Positions 3,537-61,162 of a stretch of 64,000 nucleotides of DNA are shown here, in pieces (the first letter of the stretch is position 1; each line of letters begins with the position of its first letter). The notes beneath the pieces are model-generated. The model saw nothing but the letters and a program-made list of their open reading frames with translations, was not told the DNA's origin and did not search any database. The stretch spans positions 1,263-65,262 of the forward strand of contig MHDZ01000015.1 in NCBI GenBank assembly GCA_001805055.1, written 5' to 3'. Made by a program: the position numbers and the translations under genes. This stretch comes from Nitrospirae bacterium GWC2_57_13. GTDB lineage: Bacteria > Nitrospirota > UBA9217.

Positions 3537-4313
3537 TCACTCCCTGACCAGCTCAACGCGCACCGGCTCTATGGCGAACGGTGATTTTCTGCCCACAAGC
3601 CTCACGCGGTCGCCGACCTGTACGCGATCAAAAAACGGTTTGTTTACACAGATGTCTTCAGGAAAGGATATGCCATCGAGGTTGATTCTCGGCTTGCATC
3701 GACGATACTTTGACCGGAAGTCGTATTTGGCCGTCACCGTCGTAACGACCACGCCGTTGTCCTTCTCGGCAGCATAATGGAGCGCCTTGGGCAGACCCCC
3801 GAACACAGCCCCGTGAAATACGAGTCCAAGGCCCAAAACGGCGACGATGAGTCGTGTGTACCGTGACAGCGGCTTCTTTCGTGCGAATTCCGGAGATCGG
3901 CGCGCCTTGATCAGCAGCAGGAACATGGGCGCATACAGGGCCAGGAATATCGTGAAAAAGGCGGGGTCAGCATCAGGGACGGTCGAGCTCAGGCTCCTCC
4001 GGTACATCCCGAACAAAGCAAGAGCAATAAGAAGACCGAAATACGCGGAAAAGGCCACCCCCCACGGACCGATTCGCTGCTTCACGATCCGGGGATGCGC
4101 CTCGACCTTGCAGGAATACGTCGTGTTCTTCCCCTCTCTTGTCACGTCGAACACGATCCTCTTCGCGTGCCGCAGGTCAGCGCCGCGCGACTGCATCTCT
4201 GCCACGCACTTCTGCCACTCGTGGCGGATATCCTCGGGCATGTCGGCCTCGGAACCGTACGGTACGCCGTTAATCCGGATAATGGGGGAAGTTTTCTTCC
4301 GTTTCAACATCAT
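3537..4313 (-). CDS. Hypothetical membrane protein (2-3 TM) with N-terminal I-x-I-N-G-x-x-Y-x-S...PED-x-R motif
   Basis: ORF 3537..4529 trimmed to MMLKRKKTSPIIRINGVPYGSEADMPEDIRHEWQK. The upstream 72 codons are Ser/Trp-rich read-through overlapping the neighbouring gene. Hydrophobic helices follow. It shares its N-terminal motif with the next gene. Confidence 0.5.
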   Translation of the reverse strand: MMLKRKKTSPIIRINGVPYGSEADMPEDIRHEWQKCVAEMQSRGADLRHAKRIVFDVTREGKNTTYSCKVEAHPRIVKQRIGPWGVAFSAYFGLLIALALFGMYRRSLSSTVPDADPAFFTIFLALYAPMFLLLIKARRSPEFARKKPLSRYTRLIVAVLGLGLVFHGAVFGGLPKALHYAAEKDNGVVVTTVTAKYDFRSKYRRCKPRINLDGISFPEDICVNKPFFDRVQVGDRVRLVGRKSPFAIEPVRVELVRE

Positions 4314-5645: not shown

Positions 5646-5684
5646 CCCCTCTCCCCTTGGGGGAGAGGGTTAGGGTGAGGGGTA
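5646..5684. repeat. GEG-family palindromic repeat copy
   Basis: cccctctcccc-ttg-ggggagaggg is a perfect inverted repeat followed by ttagggtgagggg. It overlaps the 3' end of the DUF559 ORF. Confidence 0.5.
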
Positions 5685-25553: not shown

Positions 25554-26339
25554 TCAGAACCCCTCCTGGTTCAGGTACTCGAGGGGGTCTTTTTTGCTCC
25601 TCGGCGTGGTCGTAGTCACGTCCCCTGCCGCATCCTCGATCCGCTTCTCATCGGCAGCGTCCCAGCCCCGCACATAGTGTTCCGACGGCTCGCCCAGCGC
25701 TAGCTCCCGGGGCAGGACAAAGATCGACGCCTTCCGCGTGACGCAGGCGTGTTCGCAGAGGCCGCATCCTGTGCAGTGTTCGCTGTGCACCACCGGCCCG
25801 AGGATCGCGTGCTTGCCGGTGCGGTCGTTCTTCAGATGCTCCACGGTGATGGCCCGGTCGATGACGGGACAGGCCCGGTAGCAAGCTTCGCACTGGATGC
25901 CCCAATAGGCGATGCAGGTCTCACGGTCGATTACGGCGAGGCCGATCCGCGCCAGGTTAATGTCCAGCCGCTGAATACCGGCATCGTCAGGGCCGCTCAC
26001 CAGAGCGGGGGCGAGGGCTCCCGTGGGGCATTCCGCAGCGCAGGGAATGTCCTGGCACATGCGGCAGGGGTCCTCGCGCATCAGAAAGTACGGCGTCCCC
26101 ACAGGTCTGCCGTCGCCCGGCTTTGCCATGATCAGGGCATCGTAAGGACAGGCTTCCGCGCAGAGACCGCACTTGGTGCATTTCGCAAGGAACCGCGCCT
26201 CCTCGACTGCCCCAGGCGGTCGAAGCACCGTGGGGTAAGCCTTCTTGCCGTCGATGAACCCGGCCCAGACCAGCCCGCCCACTGCTGCCGCACCTGCGCT
26301 GCGCGCCAGGCCAAGCAGGAACGATCTTCGTTCCGTCAA
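25554..26339 (-). CDS. napG: Periplasmic ferredoxin-type subunit NapG (Tat-exported, 4x[4Fe-4S])
   Basis: Twin-arginine signal (M)TERRSFLLGLARSAGAAAVGGLVWAG, then four CxxCxxCxxxCP clusters. The start is probably TTG at 26337-26339, with GTG at 26384 as an alternative. Track ORF 25554..26534 is extended through a GEG repeat and the 25-nt upstream element. Confidence 0.8.
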   Translation of the reverse strand: MTERRSFLLGLARSAGAAAVGGLVWAGFIDGKKAYPTVLRPPGAVEEARFLAKCTKCGLCAEACPYDALIMAKPGDGRPVGTPYFLMREDPCRMCQDIPCAAECPTGALAPALVSGPDDAGIQRLDINLARIGLAVIDRETCIAYWGIQCEACYRACPVIDRAITVEHLKNDRTGKHAILGPVVHSEHCTGCGLCEHACVTRKASIFVLPRELALGEPSEHYVRGWDAADEKRIEDAAGDVTTTTPRSKKDPLEYLNQEGF

Positions 26340-26437
26340 CGCCGGATTCCCGCCTTCGAGGGAATGACGCTTTTCATTCCGCACTCCGAACTCCGCACCA
26401 TGATGTCCCTCACCTTTGTCCTCTCCCGATGATGAAG

Positions 26438-26489
26438 CCCCCTCACCCTTTTTCCCTCTCCCCGAGGGGAGAGGGGCGGGGGTGAGGGG
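26438..26489. repeat. GEG-family palindromic repeat copy
   Basis: ccctcaccc...ccctctcccc-gag-gggagaggggcgggggtgagggg nested inverted repeats in the napA-napG intergenic region. Confidence 0.5.
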
Positions 26490-26506
26490 TTGTCCGCATT
26501 CCGTAT

Positions 26507-33114: not shown

Positions 33115-34164
33115 TCACTTCAGCTTTTCCATATCAACCCTGTCAAACACCCGTGGAAACATCTTTTTCGCGCAGTCGGGGCACATGCCGTGAGTGAACT
33201 TCACGTCCGAGTGCCTGCTGATGTAGGTCTCCACCTGGTTCCAGTACCCCGAATCGTCCCGGATCTTCTTGCAACCCGCGCAGATGGGCAGCAGCCCGGC
33301 CAGGACCTTCACCCGGTCGATGTATTCCCGTAGCATGTCCCGCTCCTCGCGCAGCGCTTCCTCGCTCAGCTTCAGCTTCCGGAACAGGATATTGTAAGGC
33401 TTCACGACTCCCGTGTGGATGATGGCGCGGTATACGAAGTAGAAGGCCGCGATCTTGAACAAATGCCCGAACATGTTCGAAAGGCCGTAGAGGCTGATAT
33501 AAAAGGTAAAGAGCAGTTCCGAAGCAATGGTCAGGACGATGGAAACCATCAATAATTTGAGCACCGAAGGATCGAAGTCCGCACGCTTCCGGTAGAGATA
33601 GGCAAGAGACCCGGCCAGGAGCGCAGAGATGATGTATTCGCAGGTTTTCTTGAATCCCGTAAGGCCCTCTCCCTCAACGAAGCACGCGGGGAACAGGTCC
33701 CAGGCGAAGATGGAGGCCATGGCAACCGTTGTGAGGATCGCGTAGGCCGCGAACATGATCCCGGTCCTGAGGCGGCGCTTCACGAAGGCTGGAGCGATCA
33801 GGAGGGATACAGCCTGGAGCGCCCGCGCCGTGATCCAGAGCTGCGTCGGCAAATTGGCATCATAGCCGGGGAATACGCCCATGCCGGTGTAGGACAGGGT
33901 ATGCACCACGTCGATGACCCCGACGAAGAAATAGGCAATGCCGAGAAAAACAAGGTAGCTGCTATCCAGGAAGTCGCGGGCATTCCAAATGAGCATGAAA
34001 ATGCCGAAGGCGACAACAGCACTGAAGATCTCGGCGATGGAATGGAAGAGCAGAAAACTATAAAGACTTGTGAGATACAGGAGGCCTAGCCCGACGAGGC
34101 AGCTGCCCGGAAAAAGGATCCTCCGCGGAACTTCGCTCTCTTTCACGACTGGTTCATTCGTCAA
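33115..34164 (-). CDS. Polytopic membrane sensor-like protein (MASE3-like 6-7 TM region) ending in a Cys/His-rich C-terminal module
   Basis: TTG start with SD AAAGGGG. Multiple TM helices. C-terminal LPICAGCKKIRDDSGYWNQVETYISRHSDVKFTHGMCPDCAKKMFP is shared with the 36297..36746 protein. Confidence 0.65.
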   Translation of the reverse strand: MTNEPVVKESEVPRRILFPGSCLVGLGLLYLTSLYSFLLFHSIAEIFSAVVAFGIFMLIWNARDFLDSSYLVFLGIAYFFVGVIDVVHTLSYTGMGVFPGYDANLPTQLWITARALQAVSLLIAPAFVKRRLRTGIMFAAYAILTTVAMASIFAWDLFPACFVEGEGLTGFKKTCEYIISALLAGSLAYLYRKRADFDPSVLKLLMVSIVLTIASELLFTFYISLYGLSNMFGHLFKIAAFYFVYRAIIHTGVVKPYNILFRKLKLSEEALREERDMLREYIDRVKVLAGLLPICAGCKKIRDDSGYWNQVETYISRHSDVKFTHGMCPDCAKKMFPRVFDRVDMEKLK

Positions 34165-34224
34165 TCACTGCCCCTTTCCGTAACGCGGCCCTTGGCCGCA
34201 ATTGAAAACTGAAAATTGGAAATA

Positions 34225-34241
34225 TCAAATTGCAAATTTGA
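34225..34241. promoter_or_regulatory. Perfect palindrome TCAAATT-GCA-AATTTGA, 60-75 bp upstream of the membrane-sensor gene
   Basis: Lies in an AT-rich tract (gaaaactgaaaattggaaata...) and is a candidate operator. Confidence 0.3.
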
Positions 34242-34391
34242 TGCATTGCCGTAGGCCATTCCGTTCGCGTTATATACTTTTGCTCGCGCGTCAAATCTTA
34301 AAAAGAAATAGTATGCCGCGCAGACGATGCGGCTCGAACAATGGGAAACGCATAAGCCTTGCAGCTTCGTGCCCTTCGTGAACTTCGGAAA

Positions 34392-34430
34392 CAGGGACAG
34401 TCCCCCTGGAACCAAAGGGGACTGTCCCTT
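34392..34430. repeat. Palindromic hairpin repeat GGGACAGTCCCC-N11-GGGGACTGTCCC
   Basis: Perfect 12-bp stem immediately downstream of the stop of the 34435..36066 gene. A near-identical copy lies at 51292-51330 downstream of another gene. Confidence 0.5.
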
Positions 34431-36296: not shown

Positions 36297-36746
36297 CTAC
36301 TCTTTCCGGAATTTCTCCATCATCGCTTCAGCGCATTCAGGACAGAGCCCATGAGTGAACGAAGCCTTGGAATGCTCCGATACATACCGTTCGACCGGAT
36401 ACCATTTATCGTCCCGCCCTCGTATCTTCTTACAGCTTGCGCAGATAGGGAGCAAGCCCCTGAGCCGGATGATCTCATTTGCCGCGTTCTCCAGACGATG
36501 AACATAGAGGAACACCAGGAAGAACAGCAATGCCGTCAAAAATCCGCTCACCCCGCCCACGATCAGGTGCTCTTCGTGAAAGTACGGGATATCGGGATGG
36601 ACCTTAAGATCGATAAGGGCGTTCAGGTTGGCCATGAGCAGGACCACGAAAAATGCAAACAACGCCCGCACCACAACTCTCCTGGGAGAATGCCCGGCAC
36701 GATCCTTCGTGTCCCTTCGCTGAACGATCTTTTCTTTGCTTTTCAT
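36297..36746 (-). CDS. Small membrane protein (2 TM) with the same Cys/His-rich C-terminal module
   Basis: Start MKSKEK at 36746, alternatively 36827 just 10 nt after the DUF362 stop. TM helices VVVRALFAFFVVLLMANL and GFLTALLFFLVFLYV. C-terminal LLPICASCKKIRGRDDKWYPVERYVSEHSKASFTHGLCPECAEAMMEKF. Confidence 0.6.
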   Translation of the reverse strand: MKSKEKIVQRRDTKDRAGHSPRRVVVRALFAFFVVLLMANLNALIDLKVHPDIPYFHEEHLIVGGVSGFLTALLFFLVFLYVHRLENAANEIIRLRGLLPICASCKKIRGRDDKWYPVERYVSEHSKASFTHGLCPECAEAMMEKFRKE

Positions 36747-36837
36747 CCCTGTCCACTGATTCCCCAGTATCGAGCCATGAGCATCTTCATCCGCTTCATT
36801 CCGCACTCCGAACTCCGCATTCCACATTCGGGCGCGT

Positions 36838-37734
36838 CTACACCTTCATTTTTCTGATATTCAACTTCGCCAGGTCCATCACCCCGAACCCCGTCTCGGC
36901 CCCGATCCGCACGTACCCCAGGTCGCTTCCCTTCATGCCGAAGAGCGTTGCGCCGTAGGAGTCGATGGCTACCTGGTCTGTGCCGGCGATCACCGTATCG
37001 AGCCTCTTCACGTCGTCCAGGTCCCCGCCCTGGGGCCCGTTGTCCGTCAGGATCCGCACGGCGTCCAGGACCGTCAGCTTCGGCCTGATCGCCCTGGCCA
37101 GGTCCACAATGCTCTCGTCGAGTTTCTGATGGATCATCCTGCGCGAACCGCCCATGACGCCCATCCAGTTTTTCATGGACATGGTGAGCTTTGCAAGGCC
37201 GTGATGCTTCGCTATGGGCACATTGATCACCGTGTCCGCCTCAATCACTTCGGTATAGAGCGGCCAGGTCTTGAGCGCGATCCCCTTGATCTCCATATCC
37301 TTGAACTTCCGGTCATCCATGAAAATCACATCGGCGCCCTTGTCGCGGGCCGCCTCGGCGATGCCGCTCTGCACATAGCAGCGCCGCGGATCGTTCACCG
37401 GCCGGTCGAAGACCTTCACCTTCTTCGCCCCTGCCTCGATGCAGAGCCGGACCACTTCAGCCACCACCTCGGGATTCGTGTCTCCCGCCTGCTCAGGCAC
37501 GCGGTCCCAGGCGATATTTGGTTTCACGACCACGATGTCGCCGCGGGAAACGAACTTCTTCATCCCGCCCAAGGCCTCGATGGCCGCGCGCGTAATGGCG
37601 GCCGCTGACGGCCCCTGCACCACGGCAAGGTCAGGGCCTGCCTGCGCCGCCTCGGCTGCCTGCTTCAGGCCGCCGGGGAACGAAAGGCCTATGCCGGCCA
37701 GCGCTGCCGATCTCAAGAACTTTCTCCGGTCCAT
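36838..37734 (-). CDS. Tat-exported DUF362-domain protein
   Basis: Twin-arginine signal MDRRKFLRSAALAGIGLSF. DUF362 motifs VKPNIAWDRVPEQAGDTNPEVV and NVPIAKHHGLAKLTMSMKNWMG. SD GGGAGGTG. Confidence 0.75.
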   Translation of the reverse strand: MDRRKFLRSAALAGIGLSFPGGLKQAAEAAQAGPDLAVVQGPSAAAITRAAIEALGGMKKFVSRGDIVVVKPNIAWDRVPEQAGDTNPEVVAEVVRLCIEAGAKKVKVFDRPVNDPRRCYVQSGIAEAARDKGADVIFMDDRKFKDMEIKGIALKTWPLYTEVIEADTVINVPIAKHHGLAKLTMSMKNWMGVMGGSRRMIHQKLDESIVDLARAIRPKLTVLDAVRILTDNGPQGGDLDDVKRLDTVIAGTDQVAIDSYGATLFGMKGSDLGYVRIGAETGFGVMDLAKLNIRKMKV

Positions 37735-45864: not shown

Positions 45865-45904
45865 TGCATTCAACGTTCTCTCCCCTTCATTCCGCACTCA
45901 ACTA

Positions 45905-46816
45905 TCATCCCAGAGTGGCGCGGTTCCTCCCGCCGGACTTGCTTTGGTACATGAGAGAATCAACACGGGCCAGAAGGCCGTCAATGCCGTCCTCGGGCCG
46001 GGCGAGGGTGGCGCCCACGGATATCGTGACGCGCAGGTCTTGTACACTCGAGAGGTTCGACTGCTCCACGAGGGCACGGAACCGGTTTGCCGTGGCGGCC
46101 AGCTCTTCCCGGTCCACGTTCGCAATGATAGCGAGGAACTCCTCTCCACCCCAGCGGCTCACGAGATCAAATGATCGTACGCTATTCGCCAGGGTTCTGG
46201 CAACCATTTTCAGCACCTCGTCGCCCGCCGCGTGTCCGTACCCGTCGTTGATCTTCTTGAACCGGTCGATATCGGCGAAGAGCACGCCGAAGATCCATCC
46301 ATAGCGCTCCATCTCCTCGTGCCGGGCCCTCAGGATGATCTCAGCGTATCGCCTGTTGGCAAGGCCGGTGAGCGGATCCACGTAGGCCATCCGTTCCGCT
46401 TCCGCGAGCCGCTGCAGGGCCGCGGCCTCGGGCGTGTTGTCGGAAAAAACCTCCACAGCGCCCACGACCCTGTCCTGGGCGTCCCGGATCGGCGCGACCC
46501 GGACCGTGATGGGCACACGGTGGCCGGCCCGGTGATGCAGGTACACTTCGGTGCTCCGGTGCGTGCCGTCTGCAAGCGTCTCACCCACGGGGCAGACGCC
46601 CTGGCACAGCACGTTCCCCTCGTGGTCCACGTGAACGAGAATGTTGTCCGCGCACCGCTTGCCCACGACCTCTGCGGAAGTATATCCCGTGATCCGCTCG
46701 GCGCCCTTGTTCCAGTAGGTGATCACTCGCTTTTCGTCGACGAAATAAACGCCGTCGTAGAGGTTGTCTAGTATCTCTTTATATATAATATCGTTTCGGT
46801 CCATAGAGTTCGTCAT
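45905..46816 (-). CDS. PAS-GGDEF diguanylate cyclase
   Basis: N-terminal PAS (YFVDEKRVITYWNKGAERITGYTSAEVVG). GGDEF domain with an intact GGEEF active site and RYGWIFGVLFADIDRFKKIND. Confidence 0.85.
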   Translation of the reverse strand: MTNSMDRNDIIYKEILDNLYDGVYFVDEKRVITYWNKGAERITGYTSAEVVGKRCADNILVHVDHEGNVLCQGVCPVGETLADGTHRSTEVYLHHRAGHRVPITVRVAPIRDAQDRVVGAVEVFSDNTPEAAALQRLAEAERMAYVDPLTGLANRRYAEIILRARHEEMERYGWIFGVLFADIDRFKKINDGYGHAAGDEVLKMVARTLANSVRSFDLVSRWGGEEFLAIIANVDREELAATANRFRALVEQSNLSSVQDLRVTISVGATLARPEDGIDGLLARVDSLMYQSKSGGRNRATLG

Positions 46817-51291: not shown

Positions 51292-51330
51292 CAGGGACTG
51301 TCCCCTTTGGTTCCCGGGGGACTGTCCCTG
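51292..51330. repeat. Second copy of the palindromic hairpin repeat GGGACTGTCCCC-N11-GGGGACTGTCCC
   Basis: Starts 1 nt after the stop codon of the Omp85-like gene and is the reverse complement of the 34392-34430 copy with 1-2 mismatches. Confidence 0.5.
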
Positions 51331-51422
51331 TCAGTGGAAATAGCTGTCAGCGGTCAGCAAACAGTAGGCAGCAGACAATAGAGTCATGCTGTATGCTGTA
51401 TCCCGCACGCCTCTCCGTTCGG

Positions 51423-60248: not shown

Positions 60249-60388
60249 ACCAGCACCCGCATAGCGCAAAGAGCATAGTGCAGAGGTAACAGGCCAAGAG
60301 CAGAGCGCAAAGTGTCCAACTCCATGCTCTATGCCCTATGCGTGTATTTCCTCTGCGCTATGCACCATGCCCTATGCTCCATGCATTT

Positions 60389-60919
60389 TTACGCAGCCGA
60401 GTGTTTAAGCGTGCCGTGCATCCGGATCAGCTTCATGGTCTCCCGCATAAAAGCAGGCAGATCCGACGGCTGGCGGGCAGTCACCAGCCGGCCGTCAACG
60501 ACCACTTCCTTGTCCTCGTACAACGCCCCGGCCGCCTGCAGCTCAGGCGCGACGGAATGGTAGCAGGTGGCGCGCCGTCCCTTCATGAGGCCCGCGGAGA
60601 TAAGTATCTGGGGGCCGTGGCAGATGGCCGACACGGGCTTGTCGCTGGCTAAAAAATGTTTTACTATCTCGAGCGCCCGGTCCTGCTTCCGCACCGTTTC
60701 CGGCGCTTTTCCGCCCGGCAGGATCAGCACGTCGTACTCATCAGGATTCACGTCTTCAAGCGCCTTCGTGACCTCGACCTCGTAGCCGCGCTTTCCTTTG
60801 ATCTTCCCTCGTTTCATCGAGGCGATATCCACCTCCATGCCCTCCTCACGGAGACGATAGTAGGGAACGAGCAGTTCAGTGTCTTCAAAATTGTCCGCGC
60901 TTATCATGAGCGCCTTCAT
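60389..60919 (-). CDS. DJ-1/PfpI-family protein (class I glutamine amidotransferase-like)
   Basis: MKALMISADNFEDTELLVPYYRL...AICHGPQILISAGL contains the nucleophile-elbow Cys. SD GGGAGG with an 8-nt spacer before ATG 60919. Confidence 0.85.
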   Translation of the reverse strand: MKALMISADNFEDTELLVPYYRLREEGMEVDIASMKRGKIKGKRGYEVEVTKALEDVNPDEYDVLILPGGKAPETVRKQDRALEIVKHFLASDKPVSAICHGPQILISAGLMKGRRATCYHSVAPELQAAGALYEDKEVVVDGRLVTARQPSDLPAFMRETMKLIRMHGTLKHSAA

Positions 60920-61162
60920 CTCCATCACCTCCCCCGCGGTCCCGCGGTCCTCGCGAAATGGCAGCGAGGATCCGCCTCAGACCAGAAAACAAGATCAAAA
61001 GCATCTCTCGCAAAGGACGCGAAAGGTTCTAACTTGTAAAGATCCTGTCTTTCTCTGCGATCTCTGCGCCTCTTCGAGACAAAAAGTGTCGTTGCTTTTC
61101 TTTGCGCACGCTCTTCTTACAGTATACCACGGACAGGACGGCAGGTTCATCCCAGGCGGGGA

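Follow-up and report, generated by a model that had tools for sequence, protein, structure and literature searches.

Results

Short arrays at three gene junctions

The window, by which we mean the whole stretch of 64,000 nucleotides analysed here, contains three gene junctions that share a short sequence. A 25-mer (TTCATTCCGCACTCCGAACTCCGCA) matches exactly at 26373-26397 and 36795-36819, with no match in 100 shuffles when up to three mismatches were allowed. Its first 14 nt (TTCATTCCGCACTC) match exactly at 26373, 36795 and, as a third site, 45886 (45886-45899), against 0.07 matches expected with up to one mismatch; an earlier note on this DNA had pointed out the same two full copies and the shorter third one. 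All genes adjoining the three copies lie on the minus strand, on which, as the coding strand, the 25-mer reads T-GCGGAGT-TCGGAGT-GCGGAAT-GAA. Copy 1 is found in a napA-G-H-B-D operon, between its napA and napG genes, copy 2 between a DUF362 gene and the gene for a small membrane protein, and copy 3 between a PAS-GGDEF gene and an ABC ATPase gene (Table 1).

The earlier note described three tandem heptads located 34 nt (TTG 26339), 49 nt (ATG 36746) and 22 nt (ATG 45864) before the starts of the downstream genes. These distances are correct, as is the division into heptads, with copy 2 actually running to five of them (36798-36832). What the note missed is the link to the stop codon on the other side: every copy in the window starts 2-6 nt past the stop of the preceding co-directional gene, copy 2 at 6 nt from the TAG (36838-36840) of the DUF362 gene and copy 3 at 2 nt from the TGA (45905-45907) of the PAS-GGDEF gene. 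At the napA-napG junction this position is taken by a degenerate mini-array, which is probably the other half of the copy 1 array, split by a REP-like insertion; for comparison, two related loci (L127 and L262) carry uninterrupted arrays at their napA-napG junctions. Assemblies of one population differ by a 26-nt indel (TACCGACAGATAAACTCCCCTCACCC) in the REP-like copy of this spacer.

DNA identical to the window region is present in Rifle groundwater assemblies and in GCA_001803725.1. The copy 2 array is unchanged in 9 assemblies of this population and the copy 1 array in 5, with no polymorphism in unit number found in either set, and because of this invariance we do not consider the arrays phase-variable.

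Table 1. Repeat arrays, short open reading frames and palindromes at the three junctions
Feature	Position	Strand	Description
Copy 1	26373..26397	-	GCGGAGT-TCGGAGT-GCGGAAT + GAA, in the napA-napG spacer; SD-like GGAG, in-frame GTG 26382-26384, ATG 26375-26377
Mini-array	26492..26506	-	Degenerate two-unit ACGGAAT-GCGGAC, begins 2 nt past the napA stop (TAA 26507-26509)
Copy 2	36795..36832 (five heptads 36798-36832; 25-mer 36795-36819)	-	CCGAAT-GTGGAAT-GCGGAGT-TCGGAGT-GCGGAAT + GAA
Copy 3	45886..45902	-	Degenerate two-unit GTTGAGT-GCGGAAT + GAA
Array-ATG ORF at napG	26336..26377	-	13 codons, MKSVIPSKAGIRR and stop, ends TTGA on TTG 26339
Array-ATG ORF at small protein	36743..36799	-	18 codons, MKRMKMLMARYWGISGQG and stop, ends ATGA on ATG 36746
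Array-ATG ORF at ABC ATPase	45870..45890	-	6 codons, MKGRER and stop, then two-codon MQ whose TGA stop overlaps ATG 45864
REP-like palindrome	26430..26490		CCCCTCACCC..CCCTCTCCCC-TCGG-GGAGAGGG..GGTGAGGGG, between the two array parts of the napA-napG spacer
Palindrome	26344..26368	-	GTCATTCCC-N8-GGGAATCC, separates the array from the twin-arginine codons of napG; NapG-frame translation RHSxxGGNP

A heptanucleotide repeat in many phyla

We write the repeat unit as KCGGART, its G-rich strand, which in the window is the coding strand and corresponds to AYTCCGM on the plus strand. Three tandem AYTCCGM units were found at at least 120 loci in species-representative genomes (one per species, 596 Gb), where our arithmetic gives about 17 expected, and the matches listed come from Acidobacteriota, Verrucomicrobiota, Planctomycetota, Clostridia, Cyanobacteria, Gemmatimonadota, Nitrospirota, Desulfobacterota and others. 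In metagenomes, at least 118 loci with unrelated and unique flanks (GC 37-72%) carry an exact match to the 21-mer of the element, and given so many unrelated contexts the "element" is a common word of the KCGGART repeat; the full 25-mer accompanies only 11 of the 120 occurrences of the 21-mer listed from metagenomes. Viral contigs gave no match to the 25-mer. The alternative offered by the earlier note, a third small repeat family, was thus correct, the family being one of heptanucleotide simple-sequence repeats. With at least 120 genome and 118 metagenome loci, KCGGART is seemingly among the most widely distributed heptanucleotide repeats. A full-text literature search for tandem strings of the family returned no match, and heptamers are not mentioned in a 2025 survey of STRs.

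Arrays among the matches listed have 3-7 strict units, mostly 3-4, with four unit variants mixed, and in the heptad just before the array only the last three bases, A-R-T, are kept. Related contigs differ by whole units (L218 and L247 from L219; L140 and L202 from L148), a signature of slippage, and we infer that arrays would arise and be resized through slipped-strand gain and loss of units. At most 28 of the 143 listed genome arrays lie deep inside genes, by our own gene calls, which include some clearly fused ORFs and are not curated annotation; the window copies are all intergenic.

Arrays are oriented with respect to gene ends

Gene positions in 238 loci were assigned with our own crude codon-usage caller, trained on those loci, together with ORF rules. 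Read in the KCGGART sense, 42 of the 143 genome arrays start 0-15 nt past a co-directional stop, counting stops of same-strand open frames that span 100 codons or more, compared with 8 for the complementary reading (p = 1e-6, among the matches listed), and the metagenome matches listed replicate this adjacency (24 vs 5, p = 5e-4). There are junctions at which the stop codon itself falls within the first, degenerate heptad (TAG-gaat, TGA-at, TAA-t). The earlier note had tied the element to downstream starts, whereas family-wide, among the matches listed, the 31 arrays in a co-directional arrangement lie a median of 7 nt from the stop and about 147 nt from the next start. Another 18 arrays, among the 79 classable as intergenic, sit between convergent genes, at a median of 9 nt from the stop, and 19 arrays with the C-rich reading on the sense strand lie 8-67 nt upstream of a start.

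The arrays keep a fixed orientation, with the G-rich strand running 5' to 3' away from the adjacent gene, and most therefore begin at, or within about 12 nt after, a co-directional stop. It is the shortness of these operon junctions alone that makes the window copies resemble "upstream elements". Inverted pairs, none of which is in the window, have the G-rich arm first and then the C-rich arm (56 vs 1 among the matches listed). Their arms mirror one another beyond the family consensus (0.673 vs 0.566, p<0.0005); their folding energies are -30 to -60 kcal/mol, and the spacers between them, of 0-231 nt, are mutually unrelated. Unrelated heptad families beside stops also carry more G than C on the sense strand (25 vs 7), and the stop-adjacent positional rule holds for heptads without GGA as well.

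Several simple causes or roles were considered and set aside. Replication direction cannot account for the polarity, given that inverted pairs place the two orientations within about 100 nt of each other, and a transcription-strand mutational bias was rejected because post-stop and pre-start arrays are opposite in sense. A role as three-frame backup stops finds no support, since about 13 of the 35 other post-stop heptad units hold a sense stop, about the chance value of 0.33, and KCGGART holds none. Canonical intrinsic terminators lie downstream of post-stop arrays in 6 of 78 cases, against 4 of 78 on the antisense control.

Start codons and short open reading frames within the arrays

The repeat unit carries its own initiation signals. 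In GGAGT-GCGGA-ATG and GGAGT-TCGGA-GTG a start codon stands 6 nt after GGAG, built into the unit junctions, and the arrays have no stop codon in any of the six frames, so that short ORFs and 5'-extended gene calls follow automatically. The three uORFs of 6-18 codons are as first described, each opened by an SD-like GGAG and an ATG, with their overlaps with the main starts (Table 1). An extension of the gene frames through all three copies as AEFGVRNE had also been reported; it is present at copies 1 and 2, whereas copy 3 lacks AEFG and its ORF opens at the in-element GTG (VRNE...). From this GTG (GGAG-TTCGGA-GTG) an open frame continues in phase into each of the three window genes.

A GGAG-type sequence 5-9 nt before a frame-opening start is thus present in the sequence, although for the ABC ATPase gene its use is contradicted by the lengths of homologues; the resemblance to an SD sequence is genuine, and some junctions probably make use of it. 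With such built-in SD/start pairs, the array in the tight junctions of the window would be co-opted as, or would overlap, the region where translation of the following cistron is initiated. The uORFs are best seen as likely by-products of the repeat unit rather than a conserved regulatory device. Their peptides, of 6-18 codons, are unrelated between the three copies, and in a rough family-wide test 12.8% of uORFs end on a start, compared with 5.3% in a poorly matched control (all ATGs; matches listed), an excess that is suggestive at most. Independent arrays would be expected to agree somewhat less than is seen here, where two copies separated by 10 kb are identical over 25 nt, the +1 frame relation is common to the copies, and NTGA overlaps link array ORFs to candidate starts.

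The start of napG is where the array matters most directly. Gene callers start NapG (276 aa, P0001) at the in-element GTG 26384. The N-terminus M/V-R-[SNI]-A-E-x-K-N-R-R of many Nitrospirota NapG homologues corresponds to the translated array, and a second group has the MRNEKRHSLEGGNP...RR pattern of the window. At L127 the 20-nt napA-napG spacer consists entirely of array, and NapG has no in-frame start ahead of its twin-arginine motif other than the array GTG. At L262 the only NapG start is an ATG 2 nt past the napA stop, and NapG is read through a GCGGAGT-TCGGAGT array and an ATTCCC-N8-GGGAAT palindrome, in a different frame of the array from that of the window. Three other NapG relatives, without an array, start M-P-E-R-R, matching TTG 26339 of the window (M-T-E-R-R). 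Arrays recur at the napA-napG junction across about 25% protein divergence, and in some nap operons, as read from these genes, the array holds the start codon or is translated. By comparison with these relatives, the NapG start in the window would, on balance, be the in-element GTG 26384, and since relatives translate the array or start in it, the napG "uORF" is probably an out-of-frame ORF within the NapG coding sequence.

The other two junctions differ. ABC ATPase homologues are essentially all 243 aa long, the organism's own database entry included, a length that corresponds to ATG 45864; comparison thus supports the downstream ATG as the start, with the array only part of the 40-nt spacer. 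Relatives of this ATPase at 94% and 77% identity have no array at the junction. The N-terminus of the small membrane protein is not conserved among homologues, the protein being called at 169 aa (P0121, starting at the in-element GTG) or at 176 aa (L249-L256), and a relative with 67% identity lacks the array, its gene overlapping the DUF362 gene directly through ATGA. Different pipelines have given the same genes the array-derived N-termini MRNE... and MWNAEFGVRNE.... Because arrays are open in six frames and contain SD/start pairs, gene callers extend or start ORFs within them, an annotation problem that we flag or correct here for array-bearing genes.

An array at L203, from the same metagenome, lies 6 nt past a cheR stop and is followed by a REP, with no uORF/start overlap and no open GTG frame. 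The locus shares a 37-nt palindrome (97% identity) with the window, and its array is a probable fourth copy from the same community.

Discussion

Our main reading, to which we give a probability of about 0.6, takes the element to be KCGGART, a heptanucleotide simple-sequence repeat, in a short array of 2-5 units; it would then belong, as an ordinary case, to an already known class of G-rich heptamer repeats and not be a dedicated uORF-coupled regulator. The array does not reveal a new regulatory element, and a candidate "regulon" joining nap, the small membrane protein and the ABC transporter is thereby removed.

The closest known systems are the G-rich heptamers GGGAATC of Xanthomonas and GGGGAYT, the STRR type, of Nostoc (Rehm et al., 2015; PMC4692102). 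These repeats are 89-93% intergenic, have mean distances of 28 nt to the 5' neighbour and 160 nt to the next ORF, form many convergent pairs and accompany functionally random genes, with no regulatory role found (PMC4692102). KCGGART resembles them in its tandem 7-nt units with a GGA-N-T core (CGGGAAT vs GCGGAAT), mostly 3-4 to an array, in its apparently intergenic location with the G-rich strand close to an ORF, either downstream of one on its coding strand or upstream of one on the non-coding strand, and in its frequent inverted pairs. It differs from them, each described from one genus, in occurring in many phyla, in that some copies overlap starts or NapG N-terminal coding sequence, and in having GG rather than GGG or GGGG, the 25-mer containing only three GG tracts. 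With GG only, the G-quadruplex rationale is not applicable to KCGGART, which is a sister motif of the Rehm G4 subfamily and not a member. Since it nevertheless obeys the geometry of G-rich heptamers, the G4 explanation of that geometry is weakened, and the gene-border rule extends to a non-G4 motif over many phyla.

Other repeats share some of these features. Enterobacterial REP and BIME elements, imperfect palindromes of 35 nt, occupy 3' UTRs, many of them no more than 15 nt from a stop. KCGGART arrays are likewise short, abundant, apparently non-coding and located just past stops, and paired arrays form long hairpins, but they have no palindromic unit, GTAG head or known RAYT link, and the window copies are unstructured. 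The TAACTGA heptamers of marine Beggiatoaceae, Cyanobacteria and Bacteroidetes, for which a role in translation initiation was proposed (MacGregor, 2015; PMC4679880), are also tandem (2-6 units), intergenic, associated with unrelated genes and present in several phyla; they are start-proximal, however, whereas KCGGART is anchored to upstream stops and its unit itself holds GGAG. Finally, phase-variable SSRs of promoters or 5' UTRs, such as the 7-bp repeats of H. influenzae hmw (PMC8262952; PMC12721329) and the TTTTGAT repeat of V. cholerae ctx (bioRxiv 10.1101/2021.05.14.444153) also have 7-nt tandem units near gene starts, where copy number can alter expression. These are locus-specific, long and hypervariable within populations, while the window arrays are short and invariant in 9 assemblies.

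The other reading offered by the earlier note was a shared cis-regulatory or RNA element, possibly working through the uORFs. As a dedicated leader, the array would launch a uORF from its GGAG-ATG, and termination on the main start would couple translation to the three genes. All three array ORFs do end on or beside a candidate main start, with GGAG 6 nt before the ATG, similar short-ORF/ATGA layouts follow arrays at L171, L183, L100, L231, L003 and L061, and, given the direct ATGA overlap of the DUF362 and small-protein genes in a relative, such a relay would restore coupling across an inserted spacer. We still consider a leader of this kind improbable. Arrays follow stops rather than starts family-wide, 18 of the 79 intergenic ones lie between convergent genes, opposite-sense arrays occur upstream of other genes, and start codons and GGAG are intrinsic to the unit, so an in-element GTG start predicts the frame relation equally well. 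The peptides are unrelated, the enrichment of coupled uORFs is weak and poorly controlled, the L203 copy has no overlap, and the napG "uORF" probably lies within coding sequence that NapG relatives translate as array or begin inside it. No Rfam family matched at gathering thresholds anywhere in the window, no promoter or terminator signal was found around copy 1, and the RNA structure prediction that had been suggested as a check gave no common fold, the three spacers folding no better than shuffles (z = -0.65, -0.73, -1.29). A related proposal, that the arrays are sites for GGA-binding (CsrA/Rsm) or heptanucleotide-binding (cold-shock/S1 domain) proteins and that the three operons form a post-transcriptional regulon, draws on the three GGA motifs at 7-nt spacing, some over an SD-like site, and on such proteins having been proposed for the TAACTGA heptamers (PMC4679880). 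It seems to us very improbable, as the GGA is not presented in a hairpin, the positional rule also applies to heptads without GGA and the downstream genes are functionally unrelated. The arrays are also present in Cyanobacteria, which to our knowledge lack CsrA. A likeness to the NarL heptamer (TACYYMT) was dropped because the motif is spread over whole genomes and many phyla.

Two further explanations concern the arrays as gene-border DNA rather than as leaders. They could be a functional RNA or DNA signal, acting as a G-rich, C-poor 3'-UTR head that keeps Rho from loading on the sense transcript, as a C-rich complement that loads Rho on antisense transcripts running into the gene, or as arms of a post-stop hairpin by which transcripts are stabilised or terminated. 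The polarity of the pairs (56 vs 1), the anchoring to stops, the G excess in unrelated stop-side heptads (25 vs 7), the mirrored arms with their stable folds (-30 to -60 kcal/mol) and the recurrence at napA-napG over about 25% protein divergence all argue for such a signal. The majority of arrays, and every one in the window, stand alone and have no structure, however, and at just 21-28 nt they are short for a rut site. Together with the lack of an excess of canonical terminators downstream (6/78 vs 4/78) and a sister family without regulatory effect (Rehm et al., 2015; PMC4692102), this leaves a border signal rather unlikely. A small mobile or copied element of REP or MITE type, inserting after stops, would make the identical 25-mers copies of each other; two copies are indeed identical over 25 nt, arrays are missing from orthologous junctions in relatives, REP-like palindromes lie beside two copies, and the inverted pairs resemble terminal inverted repeats. 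Yet neither the ends nor the length of the arrays are fixed, and no target duplication accompanies them. Paired arms enclose unrelated spacers ranging in length from 0 to 231 nt, the copies in the window are not palindromic, and the exact 21-mer turns up in at least 118 unrelated contexts, as expected of a low-complexity word. With length differences that come in units and point to slippage, mobility appears extremely improbable.

With the simple-sequence repeat as our preferred reading, the anchoring to stops and the strict polarity go beyond what slippage alone would give, and there may be a function behind them, or a process of polar growth. In its broadest form, KCGGART and G-rich heptad arrays generally would be a pan-bacterial, orientation-locked gene-border device, or else the footprint of a polar process that adds units, an idea that we consider speculative and rather doubtful. 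A device may be a signal read as ribosomes or RNA polymerase leave or enter a gene, with possible roles in post-termination ribosome capture and re-initiation, or in asymmetric Rho access that spares sense and kills antisense transcripts. Alternatively, an unrecognised polar addition of units may grow the array toward the adjacent gene until the stop codon halts growth. Either version, if true, would explain the general, long-noted excess of heptameric repeats in bacterial intergenic DNA (Mrazek, 2007, as cited in PMC4692102). The geometry of KCGGART sharpens the question of what causes 7-nt repeats to build up at bacterial gene ends.

Neighbouring repeats and other features

The REP-like palindrome belongs to a family, CCCTCTCCCC-N4-GGGGAGAGGG..GGTGAGGGG, with copies at 1361-1397, 5647-5683 and 26454-26490 of the window and at about 8870-8910 of L203. 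A second palindromic family, CAGGGACAGTCCCC-N9-GGGGACTGTCCCT, is found at 34391-34429 and 51292-51331, two window copies that are 95% complementary, and at 12431-12467 of L203, the copy there being 97% identical. The GTCATTCCC-N8-GGGAATCC palindrome stands at the same place in several Nitrospirota, including L262 at about 1245-1270, and is read as ...RHSRExGNP... in the n-region of the NapG signal peptide in P0010, P0019, P0025 and P0060. Palindromic repeat DNA appears to have been recruited into the napG coding sequence. At L087 (about 3640-3750) and L114 (about 3720-3830), both Verrucomicrobiota- or Planctomycetota-like, the array occupies the loop that a different, long hairpin repeat forms (GCAGCCGACGTAAGGAGGCTC...GAGCCTCCTCACGTCGGCTGC).

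Two other heptad arrays are present in the window. A GCATRGN family at 60259-60388 on the minus strand lies 3-4 nt past the stop (TAA 60389-60391) of the gene at 60389-60925 and forms an inverted pair (GCATAGC.. / ..CTATGC), keeping the gene-border rule with an unrelated unit. An A/T-rich array, AATTGAA x5.6, at 34200-34238 is upstream of the gene at 33115-34164 (minus strand). Near the window edge, two copies of CGGTTCATCCCCGCRCRYGCGGGGAACA at 628-655 and 689-716, with 61-nt spacing, look like the end of a type I-E-like CRISPR array.

The small membrane protein (36297-36746, minus strand) has a C-terminal region of about 60 residues (LPICxxCKKIR...W...FTHGxCPxC) without a match in Pfam. Many response-regulator and PAS proteins end in this region as their C-terminal module, which suggests an undescribed Cys-rich output domain.
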